Source: a virus (lineage: Duplodnaviria; Caudoviricetes). From it: DNA of 58,070 bases. The notes under the pieces are model-generated. The model saw nothing but the letters and a program-made list of their open reading frames with translations. It was not told where the DNA came from and ran no database searches. Every line of letters starts with the position of its first letter. The first letter of the stretch is position 1. The DNA is taken from IMG/VR virus record IMGVR_UViG_3300021414_000003, positions 1 through 58,070 of that record. The stretch is one strand, 5' to 3'. Made by a program: the position numbers and the translations under genes. Below, piece after piece: positions 5,999-58,069 of the stretch.

Positions 5999-8900
5999 GT
6001 GAGATCCACGAAAATATCTTGCGAAACACCCTTGGTGGTGCCGTTGTCCGAAATGATGCAGGTAATGGTGACCGTCACCGAATCGCCAGCAACCGTATTT
6101 GCGTTCGCACGCACAGTGACGGCCGCTTGCGTTGCGCCGACCAGATTGAATTGCACCTGCGCCGGGGCATTCGTTATGGACCAGGAATACGACGGGTTGA
6201 CCGGATTTGAAATCGACGCGGTGTGCGTCCCGCAATACCCGTTCGTCACGTTGTGCGGAAGCTGGAACGTATTTCCAGGATTGGACGTAATTGAAACCGC
6301 GCGCCCGGCCAGTTGAAGCGTCGGATTGACGATCAGCAGTGGCGTGGACGATCCCGGGTCCATGATGATTTTGGATCCCGCCGAGTTGCCGATGCTCATG
6401 CGTGCGCTATGGCCGCTTCCTGCGCCCTCGATCCAGAAGCCGCTTCCCGTATCGAACGCGGTTTGACCACTGCTGATATCGCCGCCCACACTCAACTTCA
6501 GGTGCTTCGTTTCGATCGAACCCGGCGCCGTCGTGGAACCCTCGGTCATCAGGTCGAGGCGCAGACCGGTCACGGCCATGGCGTTGCTGGTTCCGCTGCC
6601 GCCTGCATTGATCTGCAGGAACACCGAACAGAACTTTGCTGCCGCAGGAATGGGTAGTCCGGCCACCTTCGCACCAAAGCCGCCATTCTTGTACGTGCGC
6701 CAAACGCCATCGCCCCCTGGGATGAAGTTTTGGACGAAGTGCGCGCCGAACTGATCGCTCCAGCTCGACGTGATAACCGCGCCTGCGCCGTCGTAGAAAT
6801 TCAGGCCGACACGCAGTGCACGATTGTTGCCCGACGAAGCCCAAGCGCTTACCGAGGCGTTGTAGGTGGCCGACGAGTCGATCGGGAAACGCTCACTGAC
6901 GGCATTGGCGTAATCAGCCGTACCTTGGACGTAGGTATTGGCAGGCGCCGCCCCGCCTGGCCCGGTGGCTGCGCTCATATTGTTGAGCGACCAGCCTGCA
7001 ATATCGGTGAAGTAGGGGTCGCGGTTGAGCGTCCCACCATCGCCCGTCGCAATGATATTGGACGCCTTTACAATCGTTCCCGTCAGGGTTCCGCCGAACG
7101 TCCCCGACATCGCCCATAGCTGCCCAGTATTCGACACGCGGAACGGCGCAGCGCCATAGGTGGCCGCACCAGCCCACTGGTTGCCGGCCGCATCTACGTG
7201 CATGCTTGTGGCACCCGAGCCGATATCTAGCGTACCGCCGATGATTGCAACGGAGCTAAATACGGCCGCGCCAGTGTTGGAGACGCGGTAAGGTGCACTG
7301 GCGAATGATCCGGCGCCAGCCCACTGGTTGCCGTTCGCGTCGACGTGCCAGCTCGTGGAGCCGCTGCCGATGTCCATGCTCCCGGACGTGATCGCGCCCA
7401 TGACACCGAGCGTGATCGCCGATAAGCTGGCGACTTTCAGCGATGACCAGTATGGGACTGACCAAGTGACGGTATCGTTGGCCGGGTTATAGATGCCGTC
7501 GACCTGGTACATGAACTCGCCCTGGGCGAGCGCCGGGACTCCTTTCGAATACATGCCCACGATGCCGCCGCTGTTCGACACTGGAACGCTCGTCCTGCCG
7601 GCCGTCGGCGCAGGGGGCGTGGTGGTGCTCGCCGTTGCCGAGGCGCAATAGGCCGTGACGTAGCTCGCTCCTTCAGCACCGGCAACGCTCGCCCCGGCGC
7701 GCGCTTTCGCGAGCGATAAGACGATCGGGATGATCACGCCACCATAAACTGCCTGCAGCGTGGCTGATGCCTGGTCGGCGCTCATCGCCGACACGGAGTA
7801 GACGCCTGCCGTTGTAATCCCGACGGTGCAGCCGGTTTGCGACGCGACCGAATAGGCGACCGCGGCGCCAGTTTTCTCGACCGTCCCTTCGTAGACCTTA
7901 AAAGTACCAAAAGCAGACGCGAACGAGCCGACTGTGCCCGCACTATTGGCCGCCAACGTCATCGACTGATTGGTAAGGAAGCCACCGATCGCCGACGCAC
8001 CATTGCTGCCGCCAGTGACCTGCAAGAGCGTCATCTCATCGGTGTAGACGGTACCCGCGATCGTGGTTTGCACGCGGAACACACGCGAGCCAGTGAAAGC
8101 GCCGGACGCCGCGGCGTACGTTGCCGCCGTGGCGCCTGCGATGTTTGTCCAAGCTGAACCCGTCCAATACTGCCATTGATTCGCGCTAGCGGCGCCACCG
8201 TAAGGAGTCGCCGTCAGCGTTATCGTAGTCGGAGCGAAAGCATCAGTTGACGTCGCGCGACTGAAAACCTGGCCGCCGGCTGTAGAAATATCGACATACA
8301 TTGCGGTACCGGCCGGACCTGTGGCACCAGCAGACCCGGCAACCGTGATCGATGCGCTCGACCAGTTAAATCCGGTCGACGAGACGGCAGCCGAGTCGAT
8401 GACGCGCACCGCGGCTTTCCACAGCGTGTAGCCCGGCGATGGCGAAACCCCGGGCGTCAGCGCCCAGCTAGCGGGAGCCGCGCCGAAAGCAAAGCTCGCC
8501 CAGGTGAGCGTGCCAGTACCCACTGGCCCCGCCGGGATTGTGGCCGCCCATTGGTAGACGGCGACCTCATACGACTGCAGGCCGCTCAAGCCATTCGCGC
8601 CGTTCTGCACGCCATCCTCAACGACCGCGCTTGTGTAGGCGACTGGCGACGTGGTGGCCGCGACAGCGGCCGACAGTGGGACCGCAGCTGCGAAGAGCCG
8701 CCACCCTGGCGTGCCTGGATTAGCCGCCGCTGGGTTTGCCCATCCATCCTGGCCAGTGTAGCCACTATTCGTCAGGGCCGCCCAGGTGAACGTGCTGACC
8801 CCGGTTGGCTTCGCGGGCGCGATCGGTGCCCATTGGAACAAGCGCGCGACTGCGGTTTTCAATCCATCAGCACCAGCTGCTCCGTCCCGGCTCTTGATGA

Positions 8901-35133: not shown

Positions 35134-35420
35134 TCAATCCCCTTTTCGGTTTGTGCTTCGTGGTTTTTCTGCTTTTGCTTCTGCTTCTCGATCCACGCGC
35201 TGCGTGGTGCCATTGGGTTGGCCCAGACAAAGTGCACGCAGACCCGGTGATCCCAGGCTATGAACGGGTGGCGCAATTCGTAGCTCGTGCCGTCGTAGCC
35301 GGTGCACCGCCCTTCCCCGCGCTCCTTGAGTTCCGGGTAGCCGATGGTGGTGAAGTGTCGGCACCGGCCGCAAATCTCTTCCCATCGCTCCGTCACGCGA
35401 ATGCTCGCTGGCTCTCCCAC
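35130..35420 (-). CDS. Cys-rich hypothetical protein
   Basis: C..C.HF...G.C...C..F. Confidence 0.6.
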   Translation of the reverse strand: MGEPASIRVTERWEEICGRCRHFTTIGYPELKERGEGRCTGYDGTSYELRHPFIAWDHRVCVHFVWANPMAPRSAWIEKQKQKQKNHEAQTEKGIE

Positions 35421-36145
35421 GGGAAATTGCAGGGGTAGGCGTTGTCGCGCAGCCGGTCGTGCACGCGGTCGCCAACGAAGTCCTTGAGCGTGTCGAGCTT
35501 CTGGTTCGTGATTGCGATCATCGGCTTGTTGTTCGAATAACGCCTGTTGACGACCTCGGTGAGCAGGAGCTTCGCGTTGTCCTTGTCCGATACCGCGTCG
35601 ATCTCATCCAGGACGAGCAGGTCGTACCGGGCGAAGCGCGCGATCTCCGTTTCCTCGGCCTTGCCCTCCCGCCCGTAGCTGGACTGGATCTCGCTGATCA
35701 TGCCGCGCGCCGTGATGTACCGCGCCGAGCGCCCCGTCTTGGCGATGTAGGCCTCTGTCAGCTCGCAGGCCAGCAGCGTCTTCCCGGTGCCGACCTCGCC
35801 CACCATCAGCAGCACTGCCCAGCGCGGTGCCGGCGTGATGGCATCGCGGAACCTGGCTGCGATCGCGCGGATCGCTTTGTGCTCGTCGGTCAGGCCCTTG
35901 AAGCTTTGGCCGCGGTATCGCGCTGGGATGTCCGCCGCCTTCGCGACGTGCTCGCGGCGGTCTTTTGCCCAGATCGCGTCGAAGTCAGGGCGCTTCTGCT
36001 GGTCCAGGCAGTGCGGGCAATACCAGCCGGCGCCGGAACGGGCGAGCACCTTGCTTGCGCCGTGCTCGCCGCAGGAGCCATCGACGTATTGCAGCCGCGC
36101 GCCGAGACCCTCGATCAAACTCCCGACATGCTGGAAGCCGCTCAT
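35393..36145 (-). CDS. DnaC/IstB-like helicase loader ATPase
   Basis: Zn motif C..H...CP.C, GEVGTGKT, LLVLDE, DRL. Confidence 0.92.
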   Translation of the reverse strand: MSGFQHVGSLIEGLGARLQYVDGSCGEHGASKVLARSGAGWYCPHCLDQQKRPDFDAIWAKDRREHVAKAADIPARYRGQSFKGLTDEHKAIRAIAARFRDAITPAPRWAVLLMVGEVGTGKTLLACELTEAYIAKTGRSARYITARGMISEIQSSYGREGKAEETEIARFARYDLLVLDEIDAVSDKDNAKLLLTEVVNRRYSNNKPMIAITNQKLDTLKDFVGDRVHDRLRDNAYPCNFPWESQRAFA

Positions 36146-36669
36146 AGTGGAACGTCCTCAGCCGGGACCGCGATCGCGTGTCGCTGCATGAAGTTGTCCT
36201 GCGCGCCCTGGTCGCCCGACCGGTCGGCGCCGGCGAAGTTGAACTTCTGGCGCGGCAAAGCGATAGGCTTGGCACCAGCGGTATTGCTCGCTGCCGGCGG
36301 CGTCCAGTCGGAACCGAAGTGCTCATCGGGCCCGAAGAACGTCTCCGGCAGCTTCAGATGTTGGCCGGTCGCCTGAATGTAGGCAGAGTAGCCCCGCGCT
36401 CCGGCGAGCATCGTCTCGGCAGCCACACCGGACCTGATCCGCGCCGTCCAGGCCTTGAACGTCGCGCGCTTGTTTGCGCCCGGGCGCGTCGGGTAGGCCT
36501 GCCACGCCTCTTCGAACGCCGCCGGGTAGTCGTTTCGCTTCGGCTTGCCCGGCACCGCCGCGCTGCGCAGCGCTTCTAGCTCGTCCAGCAGCTCGTTGAT
36601 CGTCGAGGCCTTGAGCAGTACCGTCTCGGATTTCGCGGCCCGCTCGCGCAGTGGGGAATAGTCACGCAT
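36142..36669 (-). CDS. Short replication protein (C-terminal domain of O-type initiators only)
   Basis: YP..FE.AW.AYP.R.G..K...FKAW..R...TFFGP; upstream of loader; 175 aa. Confidence 0.75.
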   Translation of the reverse strand: MRDYSPLRERAAKSETVLLKASTINELLDELEALRSAAVPGKPKRNDYPAAFEEAWQAYPTRPGANKRATFKAWTARIRSGVAAETMLAGARGYSAYIQATGQHLKLPETFFGPDEHFGSDWTPPAASNTAGAKPIALPRQKFNFAGADRSGDQGAQDNFMQRHAIAVPAEDVPL

Positions 36670-37396
36670 GGGCCACCTCCGGCGTGCGCTGCTTCAATTG
36701 CCATTTCGCCCACTCGCCGGTCACCCACAGCACACCCTTCGGCGTGAAGCGTGCGGCATTGTAGGCATGGCCACTGACTTGGGCGGTACCGGCCTTGACG
36801 CAGAACCGGCCGGCGTCGATGTGCGCGGCGTGCGGCGTCAGTTCGCGGCCCAGGCGATACAGGATCTTCTGATCGATGAGGAACTCGCGGAAGTGGTTCT
36901 CGTTTGCGCCCAGCAGCTTGGCCACTTGCCGGAAGCCCTTCGTGCCGGTCGAGTCAGCGTAGCGCCCGACGAACTCCACGGCCGGCGCCGCGGCGGCGAG
37001 CTGCTCGGCCTGGGCTGCGATCACATCCTGCTGGTCGGCGGCCAGGCGCAGCGCATCGGCGAAGGACTTCGGCAAGGCCATGGCCGGCGCCGGCACCGCA
37101 GACTCCAGTTCGATCCAGCGGTCGATGATCTTGGCGCGCAGAACCGCGTTGTAGCCAGAGATGACGATCAGGCAATCGCGCTTCGCCAGGTCGTAGACCA
37201 TCGTTGGACGCCCGCCGCCCTCCGGCGCATGGGGACGAGCGGTATTACGACCAAGTCGTAAAACCCCCTGATTGATCAAAAGCTCGATCGTCGCAATGAC
37301 GTCGTTGTGGCGCGCCTCGCAGATGTCGGCGATTTCGCGGCTCGACATCGTCGCTTCGGTCGAGCCAGTCGGATGCAAACTCAGAATGCTTCCCAT
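36662..37396 (-). CDS. Antirepressor-like protein (Rha + KilA-C/ANT)
   Basis: TMSSREIA...H..V, GY...LRAKIIDRW.ELE, LP.SFADALRLAAD, FTPKG..W. Confidence 0.9.
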   Translation of the reverse strand: MGSILSLHPTGSTEATMSSREIADICEARHNDVIATIELLINQGVLRLGRNTARPHAPEGGGRPTMVYDLAKRDCLIVISGYNAVLRAKIIDRWIELESAVPAPAMALPKSFADALRLAADQQDVIAAQAEQLAAAAPAVEFVGRYADSTGTKGFRQVAKLLGANENHFREFLIDQKILYRLGRELTPHAAHIDAGRFCVKAGTAQVSGHAYNAARFTPKGVLWVTGEWAKWQLKQRTPEVAHA

Positions 37397-44093: not shown

Positions 44094-44165
44094 TTAGGGA
44101 TACCTAAATTTTTAGGCAAGCTTTTTTTAGGCTTACCTCAACGAAAAAAGTTTAGGATTACCTAA
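44094..44165. promoter_or_regulatory. OR operator cluster
   Basis: TTAGG-N4-CCTAA palindromes at 44094-44107, 44127-44140 (1 mismatch) and 44152-44165. Confidence 0.88.
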
Positions 44166-44884
44166 TGGAACAATGGAAACTAAGACTGAAGGCAGCGCGT
44201 GAGGCGAAAGGTCTCAACAAGACCGAATTTGCAAGGGCTGTTCGTGCCTCTAACCCGACGGTCACCGACTGGGAGAAGGCCGTCATTGAAGGCGGCATTA
44301 AGGAAATCTCTGGGGTCAGACTGACGAAGGTGTGCGAGGTACTGGGGGTTGATGCATCCTGGCTCCTGCATGGCAGGGGGAGTGGCGCCGCCGCAGTTAC
44401 GCCGGCATCCACAGATCAGATTGACAAGTTAAAGCCCGTTCAAGGTCTGGATGAAGGCGACCCGACGTTCGTGCACATACCGAAAGTCCGCCTGCTCGTG
44501 TCTGCTGGGGTCAGTGGCTTCGGTGTTGAACCCGAGCCATATGATGGCGCAACTGCACCGGTGCCGACCGAGTGGCTCCAGCGGCGCCAGCTACGACCGG
44601 AGCGACTCCTTGCGACTCGGGTGCGCGGGCGCAGCATGGAGCCGACCTTCTTCGAAGATGACGCCGTGATCATCAACCTCGACGCAATAACGCCCATTGA
44701 CGGGGCGGTCTTCGTCATAAATTACGAGGGTGAAGACATAATCAAGCGACTCATGAGGGACGCCGGCGACTGGTGGCTTGAGTCTGACAACCCCGATAAA
44801 CAACGTTACCCCAGAAAGCTTTGCAGAGGCGCGGAGTGCCTCATCCTTGGCCGAGTGGTGCGCAGCGAACGAGAGCACTACTAG
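44165..44884 (+). CDS. cI: CI repressor (HTH + S24 autopeptidase)
   Basis: N-terminal XRE HTH, SAG cleavage site, GRSMEP Ser, IKRL Lys. Confidence 0.95.
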   Translation: MEQWKLRLKAAREAKGLNKTEFARAVRASNPTVTDWEKAVIEGGIKEISGVRLTKVCEVLGVDASWLLHGRGSGAAAVTPASTDQIDKLKPVQGLDEGDPTFVHIPKVRLLVSAGVSGFGVEPEPYDGATAPVPTEWLQRRQLRPERLLATRVRGRSMEPTFFEDDAVIINLDAITPIDGAVFVINYEGEDIIKRLMRDAGDWWLESDNPDKQRYPRKLCRGAECLILGRVVRSEREHY

Positions 44885-45175
44885 GTGCAGTGCGTAGTAA
44901 TCGATTTGTGCTGCGTTCGAATCGCAGTGATACGGGTTGCGCCTGCGCTCCTGGTTGAACCTCAGTCGACTAGGACGATACGTGAGCTGCAGCCGCGCTT
45001 TGGGGTAGTGCCTCTGCTGCTTGCATCTTTTGAGGATCCGGACATGAGCGATGTTCGCGGCTATTCAGAGTTCCCGGCCGCCGATTATCTGGCGGATCTG
45101 CTGGACTGGCATAGCATGGAACCCATCGAATGGGGGCCACTGCCGGTGCCGGCCGAAGAAGAGTTACCGTTTTAG
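44885..45175 (+). CDS. Hypothetical protein
   Basis: GTG immediately after cI stop. Confidence 0.5.
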   Translation: MQCVVIDLCCVRIAVIRVAPALLVEPQSTRTIRELQPRFGVVPLLLASFEDPDMSDVRGYSEFPAADYLADLLDWHSMEPIEWGPLPVPAEEELPF

Positions 45176-45219
45176 GCGCTACGGCACGCCACGGTGCCGA
45201 TTACATACCAAAGCGAAAA

Positions 45220-45666
45220 ATGGGTCTCGCAAAAAAGCTGGCTGTTGTTGTGATTGCTATTCCTGTCCTTCTCGTGGGCGGCTCCTACATCCGCAATAAG
45301 GCAGTTGGCCCAGAGGGATGGGCCATGGACAACACGGCGACTCGGCTGAAAGTGCACTTTAAGGATCCTGACTCGGTAGTGATCAGGTCATCCCGAACGA
45401 TCGCGAAGGTGGACCCGGAAAGCAAAGGTACCGTCATCCATATTTGCGGCTTGGTCGATGGGAAGAACTCTTTTGGGGCTTACCCCGGCGCCGTTCGGTT
45501 CGTATCGCGCAGCGTCTACAGTAAAGTCACAGATACGTTCGATACCTACTCGGTGACGGTCGAAAATCCGCTGGAAACCGCAACCGCGCATCGGATCGAC
45601 AGGCGGAGCGGTTTCGAGAAGGTTTACTGGGACCCGAACTGCGAAACCGACAGCAAGGCCACCTGA
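45220..45666 (+). CDS. Membrane-anchored periplasmic protein
   Basis: N-terminal TM; KDPDS...ICG.V.GKNSFGAY.G..RF motif. Confidence 0.75.
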   Translation: MGLAKKLAVVVIAIPVLLVGGSYIRNKAVGPEGWAMDNTATRLKVHFKDPDSVVIRSSRTIAKVDPESKGTVIHICGLVDGKNSFGAYPGAVRFVSRSVYSKVTDTFDTYSVTVENPLETATAHRIDRRSGFEKVYWDPNCETDSKAT

Positions 45667-45953
45667 GCCGCAGCGACGCACCAGGCTGCAGTCACTGCAA
45701 CAATTGGCGAGATTTCAAGCATTGTTAGCAGGATATACTCATCGGGCGATACAGCACACAGAGGTGCTGATTCGACGGTAAATACTACCGGTTTAGCAGT
45801 ACTTATTTCTGTCTTTAACCGCTTGATCTGCGTGGGCATCAGCAACACGGCACGATCTTCAAATAGTCTTGAAGTATCTTGATTTGAAGCAACCAGTTAA
45901 TTCGCTCAACCGATGATTCTGAATAGCAGAATATGTGAAATTTTGGAGTTTTA

Positions 45954-46958
45954 GTGAAAACAGTTAAAAACCGGAAGCAGTTATATTATAAACAGGCTAA
46001 GTTTTCGTCTAAGACTTCCGATACCCTTCAGTTGCTTCTTGAAAAGGCGCTCAAGACCTTTAAGGTACCAGACAGGAGTCAAACCATTTATGAAACGCGA
46101 ACAACCCTAGAAGATAAGACTTCGCAGGAATGGCTGCGGTTGATAAACAGTCCTCGACTCGTTTCCGGCTTCCAGTGCGGAACCTTAGTCTCCTATTCCC
46201 CTGGAATGCATCATATGGTGATTTCTATCGCCAAGTCTAACGAGGATGAACTTGACGTTTCAAAGCACCCGCCTCCTGATGGCAAGCGGTTTATGGAAGC
46301 GCCGTTGTACTTCGCAGTCCGCGACAATCATGTGGTGATTCTGCAGTCCATGTCTTTGCGAGCTGATGCATTTGAATCTCATCTAAACTGGTTACTGCAA
46401 AAAACTGGCGGGTTGCATGCCGGTGAATCCGTGCGCCTCAGCGACGCAATCCCAGGGGAGATCAGACGAAAGATTAAGAACCGTGCGATTAAGAAAATAA
46501 CGTTACAGTCGCCGTTCTTTGAATCTCAGGCGAAGGATACTATTGAGCATCGTAGTGTAACAAGCTCTATAAAGGCTGCCGCCGGGAGAGGACTTGATAT
46601 TCTTAAAGGCATCATCCCTGCGGTGCAGTACGACAAACTCGTTGCACAAGATCTTACCGACGTTAGCGATATACAGTTGAACTTGGAAATCAAAGTGGTT
46701 GGGCGGCGGCGTTCTGACAATCACGATGAGCAAGCAATGCGGACACTTATGGATGCAATACGACATGTCGACGATCCAGATTTAGTGCGCGCTGAGGTCG
46801 AAGGTATCGGAACGATTAAAGGAAGCGAGTTAAGGGTTCACGACTATCGTAACATTAAGGTAATTGATGGCATTCTAGATACTGCCGATACTTATGACAC
46901 CATGTGCACATGGGTGATAAGTTTGGTTGACAATAACCGAATATCAGGCGACCATTGA
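45954..46958 (+). CDS. AT-rich soluble protein, candidate defence component A
   Basis: 334-aa ORF, GGAG SD, rex position. Confidence 0.8.
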   Translation: MKTVKNRKQLYYKQAKFSSKTSDTLQLLLEKALKTFKVPDRSQTIYETRTTLEDKTSQEWLRLINSPRLVSGFQCGTLVSYSPGMHHMVISIAKSNEDELDVSKHPPPDGKRFMEAPLYFAVRDNHVVILQSMSLRADAFESHLNWLLQKTGGLHAGESVRLSDAIPGEIRRKIKNRAIKKITLQSPFFESQAKDTIEHRSVTSSIKAAAGRGLDILKGIIPAVQYDKLVAQDLTDVSDIQLNLEIKVVGRRRSDNHDEQAMRTLMDAIRHVDDPDLVRAEVEGIGTIKGSELRVHDYRNIKVIDGILDTADTYDTMCTWVISLVDNNRISGDH

Positions 46959-46961
46959 TAT

Positions 46962-47534
46962 ATGAAATATTTAATGGCAGTCGTGGGCTCGGCAATTTCC
47001 TGGGGAATATACAAATATTTCCCCACTGCCTTTTCACAGCTCATTAAGGTTGCCGGTTTTTATGGTGGGGTGACTGCAATTCTTACGGTGCTTACAGCCG
47101 GCTGGGTCATCTGCCTTTCGAGGCTTTCGACATTTGAAAAGCTAGAGGATTTGCCAAGTGGTGGCCGAGACAGAATTATCGATTATGCCAAACGTTTACG
47201 CCGAAGAATATTGGGCACTATAACGTTAAATGTCGTTTTCGCTTTTTTGCTGTTTGTCGTCATTTTTTCCGCTCAGGTCGCCGCATTTAGTCAACTTAGC
47301 TTGGATTCAAAAATCGGATATATCATTTGTGCAACTTTGGGTTTTTGCTTAGGTGGCTCTTTAGATTCTTGGAGATGTTATAGCGCGATCGAAAGTACGA
47401 AAGAAGAGTTTATACTTGCACAAATAGAGTCAAAAGCAAGAAAAACCCTTCTTGAGAAGCTTAGAAAAGATGCTCAAGAAAAACCGGTTTCACGCGACGA
47501 CCCGCATTTGAATGGATATACCGAGAATTTTTAA
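46962..47534 (+). CDS. AT-rich multi-TM protein, candidate defence component B
   Basis: 3-4 hydrophobic segments, charged tail, 3 nt after component A. Confidence 0.8.
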   Translation: MKYLMAVVGSAISWGIYKYFPTAFSQLIKVAGFYGGVTAILTVLTAGWVICLSRLSTFEKLEDLPSGGRDRIIDYAKRLRRRILGTITLNVVFAFLLFVVIFSAQVAAFSQLSLDSKIGYIICATLGFCLGGSLDSWRCYSAIESTKEEFILAQIESKARKTLLEKLRKDAQEKPVSRDDPHLNGYTENF

Positions 47535-47602
47535 ATACGGAATCGCTCGAACGAGTTATAGGCTTTTTAGGTAACCCAGTTGGCATTCGGTATCGTGACC
47601 AT

Positions 47603-48013
47603 TCATTTCGCGCCATTAGTGCTGCCCTCAGAACTCACCCGGCGCCTCGCATAGCGTCGCGCTGCCCGCAGCGTAAGGCCGAAAAACGATTTCGCCTCAG
47701 TTTTTCCATCTGCCTTTCCACCTGCAGTGATGTTGCGCTTGTCTCGGGGGCCTTCGCAGATGACTAGCCCTTTATCCCGCCGAACCCCATTCAGGCCGCG
47801 CTGCGCCTTCTCAGCCGTTGATGATTTCGCGCGCCCGATTTTTTCCAGCAGCGCGTCGAGCATGTCCTGCGTGATCGGCGCTACGCCATGCCTGTGCGCC
47901 CATCCTTTCTGCAATGGGTACGGCACTCCGAATACCTCCGCCTCGATGCGCGTCAGCGCTTTGACGGATCCCCGCTTCTCTAGGTAGACCTCGAGGGTCA
48001 GACTTTCGGGCAT
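47603..48013 (-). CDS. Basic hypothetical protein downstream of structured element
   Basis: 136 aa, K/R-rich; KALTRIEAEVFGVPYPLQKGW. Confidence 0.7.
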   Translation of the reverse strand: MPESLTLEVYLEKRGSVKALTRIEAEVFGVPYPLQKGWAHRHGVAPITQDMLDALLEKIGRAKSSTAEKAQRGLNGVRRDKGLVICEGPRDKRNITAGGKADGKTEAKSFFGLTLRAARRYARRRVSSEGSTNGAK

Positions 48014-48385
48014 TTTCGGGCCTTTTTTCTTTGCACCTTGTATAGGTACTGTTGACGTTCTTGTTCTTGGCTGTTCAGAGAGGCTGTTCAGCTTTTAGGG
48101 TTTCGAATTATCCCAGCGGAGCCTCGGTTCCAGAGCGGCACCCTCCCTAAAGGCCAGTCAAAAAAGACTCGCCTTCGTGGTGAGCGCCTGCATCCCTTGC
48201 TTTCGCACTTCGGACACTTTCGCTTGTTCGCAGACTTCCCAGGTGTTTCCACCTGTCCCCCGGCGCGCTCTACGACCTACCACCCACGCTTTGCCCCTGC
48301 CGGACGTCCTTGGCTCTTAGTCCTGGACGTCGGCGGTTTCCCCTCCCTACCCCAGGCTTGCAATCAACCGAACTCGGCCGATGGG
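48014..48385 (-). ncRNA. Candidate large structured RNA (or structured origin)
   Basis: Several GAAA-capped stems, long-range complementarity, purine-rich minus strand, upstream TACAAT -10. Confidence 0.6.
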
Positions 48386-48388
48386 GCA

Positions 48389-48455
48389 ATTGTACCTAAA
48401 TATTTAGGTATGCCGAAATAAATCTGTTGATTTTCTTTTAGGTGTACCTAATAAT
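48389..48455. promoter_or_regulatory. OL operators with pL and a divergent promoter
   Basis: TTAGGTATGCCGAA (48404-17), TTAGGTGTACCTAA (48438-51); plus strand TTGATT-17-AATAAT; minus strand TTCGGC-17-TACAAT. Confidence 0.8.
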
Positions 48456-48493
48456 GGAGCCACACGAAGCGAACTCACCAGCAGGAGCCAGCG

Positions 48494-48658
48494 ATGCCGC
48501 AGACCAGCAACCGACCTACAAACGAACAGGTGCGCAGCTGGATGCAACAGCGCCAGGCAGACAGATCGCCTCCGCCGGCACCGGAGGAAATCCGGAGGCA
48601 GTTGGGCTGGGGACTGGTTGAGGCAGAGCGGCAGGCAACCGGGCAGGGAAAACGATGA
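48494..48658 (+). CDS. First pL gene, 54-aa protein
   Basis: AGGAG SD; MPQTSNRPTNEQVRSWMQQRQ...PPP.PEEIRRQLGWGL; not in ORF track. Confidence 0.7.
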   Translation: MPQTSNRPTNEQVRSWMQQRQADRSPPPAPEEIRRQLGWGLVEAERQATGQGKR

Positions 48659-49788
48659 AGACCACAAAACCACAGGGGAACCACATGGAAAAGCAGGAAG
48701 CTGCAGCGGCACCCGCCGAGCAAGAAACGATCACCTCATACAAGGGGTTCGACAGCAATTGGCAATGCCGCGGCTTCCAGTACGCGCTCGGTCAGACCGT
48801 GGTTCACGATGGCGACGTCGAGGCCTGTGCATCGGGCTTCCATGCATGCGAGTACCCGCTCGACGTCTTCAGCTACTACGAGCCGTCCACCAGCAAGTTC
48901 GCCGTGGTCGAGCAGTCGGGCCAATTGAGCCGCCATAGCGACGACACGAAGGTGGCTAGCAAGACGCTGACCGTGAAAGCCGAAATCAACCTGCCAGGCC
49001 TGATCAAGGCGGCGATCGAATACACGGTCAAGCGCTGCGCACCGATCGACAAGGCTTCGCCGGCATATTCCGAGAGCGAGCGTGGCGCGGCCAGCAGCAC
49101 CGGCTACGGTGGCGCGGCCAGCAGCACCGGCTACGGTGGCGCGGCCAGCAGCACCGGCACCCGTGGCGCGGCCAGCAGCACCGGCGACGGTGGCGCGGCC
49201 AGCAGCACCGGCTACGGTGGCGCGGCCAGCAGCACCGGCGACGGTGGCGCGGCCAGCAGCACCGGCTACGGTGGCGCGGCCAGCAGCACCGGCTACGGTG
49301 GCGCGGCCAGCAGCACCGGCGACGGTGGCGCGGCCAGCAGCACCGGCTACGGTGGCGCGGCCAGCAGCACCGGCGACGGTGGCGCGGCCAGCAGCACCGG
49401 CTACGGTGGCGCGGCCAGCAGCACCGGCGACGGTGGCGCGGCCAGCAGCACCGGCTACGGTGGCGCGGCCAGCAGCACCGGCTACGGTGGCGCGGCCAGC
49501 AGCACCGGCGACGGTGGCGCGGCCAGCAGCACCGGCTACGGTGGCGCGGCCAGCAGCACCGGCTACGGTGGCGCGGCCAGCAGCACCGGCAAGCACGCGG
49601 TCGCGATGGCGTGCGGCTACGAAGGCCGGGCAATGGCTGGCGAAACCGGCGCGATCGTGCTGGCTCACCGTAACGATGACGGCGTCCTGGTGCACATCCG
49701 TGCGAGCAAAGTCGGTGAGAACGGCATCAAGGCAGGCGCCTGGTACCAACTCAACGTCGACGGTCAATTCGTGGAGTGCGCAGCGTGA
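48655..49788 (+). CDS. Phage protein with conserved N-terminal domain and 9-aa tandem repeat
   Basis: YKGFD...CRGFQY..G...C.SGFHACE.PLDVF.YY; GAASSTG-x-G repeats; VGENGIK...WY.L. Confidence 0.88.
   Translation: MKTTKPQGNHMEKQEAAAAPAEQETITSYKGFDSNWQCRGFQYALGQTVVHDGDVEACASGFHACEYPLDVFSYYEPSTSKFAVVEQSGQLSRHSDDTKVASKTLTVKAEINLPGLIKAAIEYTVKRCAPIDKASPAYSESERGAASSTGYGGAASSTGYGGAASSTGTRGAASSTGDGGAASSTGYGGAASSTGDGGAASSTGYGGAASSTGYGGAASSTGDGGAASSTGYGGAASSTGDGGAASSTGYGGAASSTGDGGAASSTGYGGAASSTGYGGAASSTGDGGAASSTGYGGAASSTGYGGAASSTGKHAVAMACGYEGRAMAGETGAIVLAHRNDDGVLVHIRASKVGENGIKAGAWYQLNVDGQFVECAA
49084..49590 (+). repeat. 27-bp coding tandem repeat, 18 full units plus one 21-bp core
   Basis: GGCGCGGCCAGCAGCACCGGC + (TAC/GAC)GGT; one unit has ACCCGT. 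Confidence 0.98.
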
Positions 49789-57975: not shown

Positions 57976-57990
57976 CTGGCGGAGACGGTG
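57976..57990. repeat. att core at tRNA 3' end
   Basis: Identical to 113..127. Confidence 0.95.
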
Positions 57991-58069
57991 GGATTCGAAC
58001 CCACGATACAGGTATAAGCCGTATGCATCCTTAGCAGGGATGTGCCTTCGGCCACTCGGCCACGTCTCC
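57977..58069 (-). tRNA. tRNA-Ser(GCT)
   Basis: Minus strand GGAGACG...CATCC-CT-GCT-AA-GGATG, long variable arm, GGTTCGAATCC, CGTCTCC-GCCA. Confidence 0.97.

Follow-up and report, generated by a model that had tools for sequence, protein, structure and literature searches.

A putative structured RNA family in the immunity region of a temperate phage and its possible link to replication

The DNA analyzed here is a complete IMG/VR virus record of 58,070 nucleotides (nt) (IMGVR_UViG_3300021414_000003; hereafter, the window). On its minus strand, positions 48014-48385 form a purine-rich, non-coding tract that is predicted to yield a folded RNA, the subject of this report. The tract is followed directly by an open reading frame (ORF) for a basic protein of 136 amino acids (aa) (47603-48013, minus strand; isoelectric point 10.27, 27 lysine plus arginine residues). 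Upstream of the tract, a consensus scan located a promoter-like site, herein termed pX (TCGGCA-16-TACAAT, 48416..48389, minus strand), which would place the start of transcription near 48383. An operator-like palindrome of 18 base pairs (bp) (TACCTAAATATTTAGGTA, 48393-48410) fills the pX spacer and the edge of its -10 element. Back-to-back with pX, the consensus scan identified a divergent site resembling the lambdoid leftward promoter, pL (TTGATT-17-AATAAT, 48427-48455, plus strand), which contains a palindrome of its own (TTAGGTGTACCTAA, 48438-48451). This pL-like promoter is predicted to drive a 54-aa ORF at 48494-48658, together with the genes after it.

The original prediction for this locus, made from the sequence without database searches, had proposed an operator-controlled folded RNA accompanied by a lysine- and arginine-rich protein. 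All of the motifs that it listed are present where it had placed them, and our scan recovered its minus-strand promoter with a shift of one base. The tract is also as purine-rich as described: G makes up 33% and purines 61% of the RNA strand, in which G occurs 11 times in runs of three or more. The GC skew of the core is +0.235, and the tract bears no coding signature.

Conservation and predicted fold of the RNA

Searches guided by the downstream protein identified 18 related loci. In 13 of these, approximately 375 nt upstream of the ORF are 80-86% identical to the window, whereas the proteins are only 42-61% identical. The set was extended to 56 distinct cores by exact-pattern scans, using an invariant 20-mer (GGGAGGGGAAACCGCCGACG) and later the motif of hairpin P4 described below. 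Stretches containing the 20-mer number 26 among viruses and 49 among metagenomes; its matches at loci L092, L076 and probably L056 are likely to have arisen by chance and were excluded. A version of the corresponding hairpin pattern (P2a) with an altered loop base gave no viral matches. Across 27 loci, mean identity to the window is 0.89 for the 250-nt core, against 0.44 for the fourfold-degenerate sites among codons 1-77 of the ORF next to it, which indicates selection on the nucleotides themselves rather than recent common descent. Of 32 distinct gap runs in the RNA alignment, 28 are not multiples of three, and variable columns are distributed evenly over the codon phases (43/40/40). Coding is therefore excluded by frame-breaking indels and the lack of three-base periodicity. 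A stop-codon test was uninformative in this G-rich RNA, in that stop-free frames are common on both strands and the open frame differs between sequences.

The window-type core was found only in prophage copies among 401 genomes of the family, with no counterpart on the host chromosome proper. The RNA of locus L099, when compared by BLAST with 401 genomes of its order, matched only itself. When the 901-nt region was compared with deposited phages by a distant blastn search, none was matched, and locus searches using the single 136-aa protein returned nothing.

To describe the fold, we used a hand-curated model of 53 base pairs (P1, P2 with P2a, P3-P6, a GAAA mini-hairpin, and P7) on a 27-sequence alignment (A4). 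In this model 95.6% of alignment cells are paired, as compared with 32-44% when partners are slid along the alignment. Twenty of the 53 pairs are changed on both sides (5-10 when slid), as are 95 individual cells (7-16 when slid), and none of 500 shuffles reached the model on any of these measures. The minimum free energy (MFE) of the single window sequence has a z-score of -2.73. Covariation is concentrated in P1, P2, P5 and P7; P2a, P4, P6 and the mini-hairpin are invariant in the 27-sequence set and are thus neither supported nor contradicted there. Pairs that are conserved as G-U (all 27 sequences have GU at one such position, for example, and UG at another) identify the minus strand of the window as the RNA strand. 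Together with the conserved GNRA loops and the non-coding evidence, this covariation bears out the folded RNA that had been predicted from repeated GAAA tetraloops.

The predicted elements, all on the minus strand, follow one another from the inferred start. The first, P1 (48363-48382; A4 columns 6-11/20-25), is a 5' hairpin directly after that start, with four of its six pairs changing on both sides. In P2 (48321-48357), which encloses the invariant internal hairpin P2a formed by the 20-mer, five of seven pairs do so, and the helix is completely re-paired in L099, L106 and L108. P2a contains an A-G mismatch that becomes A-U in L095 and C-G in L017, two of the sister RNAs described below. The next hairpin, P3 (48293-48314), changes from GCC/GGC to GCU/AGC in 2 of the 27 sequences, to GGC/GCC in L099, and to CAC/GUG in L104 and L106. 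P4 (48265-48289) is invariant in the Massilia-type set, and its GCGU/GCGC becomes GAGU/GCUC in L099. P5 (48240-48255), which mostly carries a GNRA-type loop, has three of six pairs changing on both sides; this confirms the CAGGTG-GAAA-CACCTG hairpin of the original prediction. A covariance model of P3-P5 (R1) detects the RNAs of L107 (89.8 bits), L108 (67.8 bits), L104 (41.3 bits) and L106 (38.0 bits). L104 holds a second, weak match to this model (6576-6672, minus strand; 18.8 bits, E 5.6e-4), located approximately 4.4 kb downstream of its main RNA.

P6 and the GC-GAAA-GC mini-hairpin (48192-48215) come next. P6 either does not vary or shows one-sided changes, and the GC-GAAA-GC mini-hairpins that had been noted in the sequence are invariant, hence without a covariation signal. 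The long hairpin P7 (48137-48188) changes on both sides at seven of 17 pairs (e.g., UA in 14 and GC in 12 sequences; CG in 17 and AU in 10), and its tip is the AAGGC-AGTC/GACT-GCCTT hairpin proposed earlier, which covariation likewise confirms. It is followed by an invariant 3' junction, GCUCUGGAACCGAGGCUC.GCUGGGAU (48110-48136). Finally, a hairpin of the form GUACCU-loop-(A/G)GGUGC (P10, 48033-48049) precedes an A-run, a Shine-Dalgarno-like AAGG and the ATG of the ORF; its six pairs show one-sided changes only, and it is also present in L053, L078, L095 and L017.

Other pairings fared less well. The proposed GCCGACGTCC/GGACGTCCGGC stem, although drawn by single-sequence MFE folding, is paired in only 69% of cases, shows no compensation and is not conserved. 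The long-range CGTGG/CCACG pairing stays a candidate, 96% paired with four mismatches and no compensation. Two long-range helices suggested by RNAalifold on 14 sequences (GUAGAGC/GCUCUGC and CCGGGG/CUCUGG) were rejected: in the 27-sequence alignment their changes are disruptive or one-sided, a local hairpin displaces them in the corresponding RNAalifold prediction, and L099 favors the local P4 register. Pairing of the Shine-Dalgarno region with the core was also rejected, as the predicted GGGC/GCCC helix is uncompensated and other candidates, judged by eye, are not conserved.

We consider it all but certain, on this comparative evidence, that 48014-48385 on the minus strand encodes a discrete, strongly constrained structured RNA. 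Its conserved unit appears to be a core of approximately 260 nt comprising P2-P7 and the GGAACCGAG junction.

Genomic contexts of the core and its relation to RF02932

The first 77 residues of the 136-aa protein form an N-terminal domain (N-domain), homologs of which follow most copies of the RNA. Among the 49 distinct cores that have 1 kb or more of downstream sequence, 43 precede an N-domain protein, in 41 cases with the same offset. The remaining six (L043, L025, L107, L104, L106 and L108) have none: a DUF5710 ORF follows the RNA in L043, and no recognizable ORF does so in L025 or L107. A separate context, within the early operon of a different phage lineage, is found in L104, L106, L108 and a prophage of genome G427 (L099/L103). 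Here, a gene for an SF2 helicase is followed by one for a Toprim_3 protein (with PriCT_2 in L106), and the core begins 5-20 nt past the stop codon; in G427, genes for NinB and RusA come after the core. At these four loci the core lacks the promoter-like hexamer, and the small ORFs downstream are mutually unrelated.

Within the Massilia-type set, similarity of the RNA does not track similarity of the protein. For example, L013 and L087 have an RNA identity of 0.93 and N-domain identities of 0.61 and 0.48, and L002 and L003 have RNA identities of 0.88 and 0.87 with an N-domain identity of 0.82. Given the cores without a protein, the separate Toprim context, and this uncoupling of RNA and protein, the conserved unit is the RNA core itself. 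That the core would function independently of the 136-aa gene therefore seems to us the better supported view, albeit with room for doubt.

Scans against Rfam 15 revealed no known family for this RNA. At gathering thresholds the whole window yielded only the tRNA at 57980-58069, and within the RNA region, at E values up to 10, the only matches were isrD (16.3 bits) and ceN45 (14.9 bits), neither of which comes near its threshold. A connection to one catalogued family emerged from related loci instead. In two metagenome loci and several prophages (L053, L078, L004/L095, L017, L111 and L116), the center of the corresponding RNA is occupied by RF02932, also called Betaproteobacteria-1, with scores of 82-93 bits. 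These sister loci share with the window a promoter bearing its own palindrome, the P1-P2 module, the GUACCU hairpin, a homolog of the protein and a divergent small pL gene; the GUACCU hairpin, which constitutes a 3' module, is duplicated in the sister RNAs.

The two central domains were then compared directly. With the RF02932 model (gathering threshold 49.4 bits), no match was obtained at E values up to 10 in window positions 47500-48700 or in 11 other window-type loci; the positive controls L053 and G003 scored 82.4 and 92.7 bits. Conversely, of five RF02932 sites the R1 model picked out two, in L095 and L096, with no more than 3.8-4.4 bits (E 6-9), and gave nothing at L053, L078 or L017. 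Because neither model significantly detects the other type, the window RNA is not a member of RF02932, and homology between the two cores could not be demonstrated in either direction. Both are purine-rich, however, and both occupy the same slot between P1-P2 and the GUACCU hairpin, ahead of a homologous protein. By eye, both also contain three successive hairpins with similar loop motifs (CGGCAGGGG; GGG..GGUC..AGA). This order of hairpins and loop motifs hints at a distant kinship. The window type differs in adding P6, P7 and the GGAACCGAG junction, and RF02932 differs in being found on chromosomes as well, where it stands alone and has a conserved 3' extension of its own.

RF02932 is present in 2 of 151 genomes of the order and in 9 of 151 of the family; three of these nine have the phage arrangement and six are stand-alone. 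In the stand-alone copies L110, L112, L113 and L114/L115, approximately 200 nt are conserved beyond the Rfam model (GGCUCCAUAC..., GCUGAGUCUGAAGG..., GGCUGGGCUCA.CC.CACCACC...), so RF02932 seems to cover only part of a longer RNA. In two genomes (L118, G234:C70:108000-121000; L119, G299:C28:1-14000), a stand-alone RF02932 adjoins the tniQ end of a three-gene operon, with the 3' end of the RNA facing the operon. This operon encodes a 675-aa protein with no Pfam match, TniB, and a 614-aa TniQ with a helix-turn-helix (HTH) domain; the RNA gene may be the attachment site of an element similar to Tn7 or Tn5053, or else the RNA may be part of the element. A weaker RF02932 match (64.7 bits) lies at 7810-7932 on the minus strand of L109 (G123:C1:2762000-2779000), between a HAD_SAK_2 gene and a gene for a 735-aa AAA_13 ATPase; the HAD_SAK_2 gene is of the 'Swiss Army Knife' RNA-repair type. 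The main text of the paper that introduced Betaproteobacteria-1 does not discuss the motif (PMC5737381), and in our literature search no further paper mentioned it by name in connection with RNA. As judged from sequence comparison, the window RNA would represent a new structured RNA family, modularly related to RF02932, which is its closest catalogued relative.

Promoter control, companion protein and phage setting

The idea that the RNA is controlled by a phage repressor was examined within the window. The 18-bp palindrome at pX has a single other match, at 44101-44118 (two mismatches), which lies between cro and the repressor gene; shuffled sequences are expected to give none. The presence of a promoter-like site, together with a palindrome that recurs at the right operator (OR), makes operator control a reasonable inference for the window phage, in keeping with the operator-controlled RNA of the original prediction. 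In Massilia-type lambdoid phages more generally, the core lies behind a promoter-like site of its own that is back-to-back with pL and overlapped by a phage-specific palindrome, and 51 of 55 distinct homologous cores have a -10-like hexamer (TAnnAT) upstream of the RNA, at a constant place in the alignment. A homologous small ORF is divergent from the RNA in related loci as well. A consensus scan for terminator-like sites found none in 46800-48700. Altogether, early expression of the RNA gated by the repressor appears likely, and in essence the original description of the locus holds. A weak hint of expression is provided by a 151-nt contig from an RNA (metatranscriptome) library that is identical to 48039-48190, although DNA carry-over is possible. 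In addition, two short contigs from runs whose RNA status was guessed cover the equivalents of 48050-48255 and 48105-48340 in relatives, and a further contig, of 7 kb, probably represents DNA.

The 136-aa ORF of the original prediction proves to be real and conserved, with 51 homologs and 85 cluster representatives. In the protein alignment (A1), the helical N-domain (residues 1-77) is almost invariant, and the C-terminal half is variable with an arginine-rich end (GF.LR.ARRYR). The protein matches no Pfam or PHROG family. An AlphaFold2 model has per-residue confidence (pLDDT) above 90 for residues 20-60, yet a Foldseek search of the PDB gave nothing below an E value of 2.6, and structural neighbors in the Atlas all have TM scores below 0.5. 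The earlier question of whether nuclease-fused homologs exist can be answered: in longer proteins the N-domain is joined to HNH and T5orf172/MUG113 nuclease-type domains, as well as to DUF5710 (in 4 of 10 scanned), HTH_3 and Lar. Such a pattern of fusions suggests that the N-domain is a small nucleic-acid-binding module. Two further observations concern this gene. First, a direct repeat (10 nt, 2.3 copies, GCCCGAAA-type) spans the Shine-Dalgarno region and start codon at 48004-48026 and is conserved in many homologs. Second, in L031/L006, which are one viral contig, the RNA is followed by two tandem N-domain paralogs of 176 aa and 149 aa.

By its gene content, the window phage is a temperate phage of the lambdoid type. 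It has an S24/HTH repressor gene (44165-44884, plus strand), with a cro-like ORF and a CII-like gene running leftwards from approximately 44086; Rha/KilAC, DnaD-like and DnaC-like genes lie at 35393-37396; and the tRNA occupies the right end of the window. Between the repressor gene and the RNA locus is a block of low GC content (45130-47534, plus strand; 0.47-0.52 versus approximately 0.63) that encodes a 334-aa phrog_3482 protein and a 190-aa protein, hydrophobic by the look of the translation. This is the position of a moron, and the block may carry exclusion or defense genes expressed in the lysogen. To the right of the RNA locus, the early-left operon begins on the plus strand with the conserved pL gene of approximately 54 aa (...QVR.WMQQRQ...PPP.PEEIRRQLGW...), whose product belongs to no family and which is always divergent from the RNA promoter, for both RNA types. 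The second gene of this operon (48655-49788, plus strand) encodes a DUF7666/phrog_4433 protein and contains a 27-nt unit repeated 18.9 times with 96% match (49082-49590), which codes for a GYGGAASST-type repeat. Because the named homologs of the 136-aa protein and the three genome loci all come from Massilia, the soil-bacterial host of this phage probably belongs to the Massilia group.

Possible functions of the RNA

If the repressor controls pX, then lifting of repression would cause the RNA to be made at once, along with the small basic, nucleic-acid-binding protein encoded after it, and both would be silent in the lysogen. The core would act as a folded RNA in its own right rather than as a leader specific to the 136-aa gene. 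As to what such an RNA might do, gene neighborhood and composition raise the possibility, the likeliest among specific roles, that it helps to start phage DNA replication. The G-rich transcript could form an RNA-DNA hybrid that primes synthesis or loads a helicase, or it could be a cofactor or loading site for primase-type proteins. This idea gains circumstantial support from several features: the core lies beside helicase and primase genes, is rich in G and in purines, is apparently gated by the repressor, and has neighbors with modules associated with primases and nucleases. Among the latter, DUF5710 both follows the RNA in L043 and is joined to the N-domain in longer homologs. We nevertheless hold a replication role only tentatively. 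Its most specific form is more doubtful still: a repressor-gated initiator whose folded, G-rich transcript begins phage DNA synthesis through an RNA-DNA hybrid or a primosome-loading structure, and whose core was captured beside helicase/Toprim-primase genes in another lineage.

Precedents exist for RNA-based initiation. ColE1 RNA II is a folded transcript, a few hundred nucleotides long, that is made from a promoter and left untranslated, as the window RNA is predicted to be. The same applies to the 'ori' RNAs of extrachromosomal prophages of cluster A mycobacteriophages, in which RNA-based prophage replication origins have been documented (PMC7157519). The window RNA is also G-rich, and its relatives lie right after helicase/primase genes, where origins often lie. 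Unlike these systems, however, the window phage integrates (as suggested by the tRNA at its end and the S24 repressor) and is not plasmid-like, an ORF follows the RNA at once, no promoter for antisense copy control was seen, and there is no relationship in sequence or in Rfam.

Several observations weigh against a role in replication. Directly after the RNA there is an ORF rather than an AT-rich unwinding element. A simple consensus scan found no antisense regulator promoter on the plus strand inside 48014-48385. The invariant junctions and loops, including GNRA loops, look more like those of a tertiary-folded ribozyme, riboswitch or protein-binding RNA than those of a primer. The original prediction had the RNA substituting for a missing initiator domain. 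It is true that the similarity of the 175-aa protein at 36142-36669 to phage initiators is confined to their C-terminal, DnaD-like part and that it has no recognizable origin-binding domain, but a Rha/KilAC DNA-binding protein is encoded just upstream; with this protein beside the DnaD-like and DnaC-like genes, the window does not necessarily lack an initiator. Moreover, among five near-complete RNA-bearing phage records, the DnaD-like protein of the window occurs in one and Toprim_3 in none, so that replication modules differ and the RNA is not tied to one replication machinery. Because the four Toprim loci are syntenic, they amount to a single lineage rather than to four separate events. Next to the -10 element, a perfect 6+6 inverted repeat is seen in just 18 of 55 cores, a count made without a chance control, so that operator control beyond the immunity type of the window comes from inspection of the alignment only. 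Finally, RF02932 is stand-alone and chromosomal in six of its nine genome matches, beside tniB/tniQ or RNA-repair-type genes, and an origin function leaves these copies outside the phage arrangement unexplained.

Another possibility, which we likewise put forward with reserve, is that the RNA acts in trans early in infection but not in replication, as a protein-binding scaffold, a decoy or a catalytic RNA for host takeover or counter-defense. It might be processed from the 5' end of the mRNA, with the central domains as alternative payloads in a phage chassis formed by P1-P2 and P10. Such a role would fit a core that is far better conserved than neighboring synonymous sites, with junctions and loops invariant across distant phages, that occurs in two unrelated genomic contexts and in six of 49 cases without the protein, and into whose place sister phages swap RF02932 between the same flanks. 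The stand-alone chromosomal RF02932, once found between HAD_SAK_2 and AAA_13 genes, would fit mimicry of a host RNA. The large prophage RNAs GOLLD and ROOL (PMC5737381) provide a precedent, being likewise ornate and conserved, of unknown function, and furnished with multiple GNRA-type loops. The window RNA differs from them in that it is much smaller (approximately 260-370 nt), has no Rfam match, and occupies an operator-controlled position by pL rather than one adjacent to a tRNA within the phage. On the other hand, a trans-acting role is a class of mechanisms rather than one, and the window-type core has no host-chromosomal counterpart in the 401 family genomes. One particular mechanism, a CsrA sponge of the CsrB/RsmZ type, was rejected: PF02599 is absent from all five RNA-carrying genomes, and control genomes do give matches.

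Could the RNA instead be a cis-regulatory leader, riboswitch-like or protein-binding, for the gene downstream? The 136-aa protein might then autoregulate through its arginine-rich tail. The regular offset of the N-domain ORF, the lack of a terminator-like site between RNA and ORF, and the conserved P10 hairpin, A-run and Shine-Dalgarno-like sequence before the ATG would all suit a leader, as would the modular layout of constant flanks and alternative central domains ahead of a homologous gene; indeed, some same-strand ORF lies downstream in every context. No expression platform was found, however, in the form of a terminator in 46800-48700 or a covarying helix that sequesters the Shine-Dalgarno sequence. 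Furthermore, in the Toprim context it is the upstream gene that is constant and the downstream genes that are mutually unrelated, RNA similarity does not follow protein similarity, and L025 and L107 have no homologous ORF. We consequently regard a leader as unlikely. A related comparison is with lambda N/nut and HK022 put, in which an RNA element also opens an operator-controlled early transcript; an arginine-rich motif in the companion protein is a further resemblance. The window RNA is four to five times larger, and its transcription unit is short and runs into convergent genes, leaving no long operon to antiterminate.

The original prediction had also suggested that the RNA is a partner of the 136-aa protein, either as a type III-like antitoxin or as a guide. 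The two are indeed adjacent in 43 of 49 cores, and elsewhere the N-domain is fused to HNH and GIY-YIG-type nucleases. This suggestion is weakened, however, by the six cores without the protein and by the uncoupled similarities of RNA and protein. An antitoxin of the ToxIN-like type fails in particular, as the RNA body (48027-48385) lacks tandem repeat units, the only array nearby being the one across the start codon at 48004-48026, and the protein matches no toxin or nuclease family or fold. The promoter, apparently repressed in the lysogen, would fire at the wrong time for a defense or addiction module, and no variable guide-like segment is evident, the variable parts being covarying helices. 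Such a partnership is thus improbable. An element acting at the DNA level (such as a site for single-strand initiation, a linker for recombination or an array that binds protein) or an unrecognized small gene is the least probable explanation: conservation is high between heteroimmune phages at a module boundary, the core is stop-free in several frames, and GC-GAAA-GC mini-hairpins are very stable as DNA too, but the indels and absent periodicity exclude coding, G-U pairs on one strand are A-C mismatches on the other and weak as DNA, and a promoter-like site lies at a fixed upstream distance.

If the RNA is real, for which the covariation is strong evidence, it would add a new class of large structured RNA with near-invariant junctions and loops, and RNAs of this kind have proved to be ribozymes, riboswitches or RNA cofactors. 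Betaproteobacteria-1, for its part, would gain a setting: temperate phages would carry it in their immunity region, as a replaceable central domain within an early transcript under operator control, and its function would become testable in culturable Massilia lysogens. The window-type homologs L002 and L003 are carried by lysogens of Massilia haematophila CCM 7480 and M. brevitalea CGMCC 1.10731, respectively, and the RF02932 type (L004/L095) by M. phyllosphaerae. Should the link to replication hold, integrating phages of the lambdoid type would possess an RNA-based device for initiation that the repressor controls directly, and our literature search found no report of one. If the initiator proposal in particular proved true, these RNAs would make up a family of conserved, structured 'origin RNAs' carried by integrating temperate phages of Proteobacteria.

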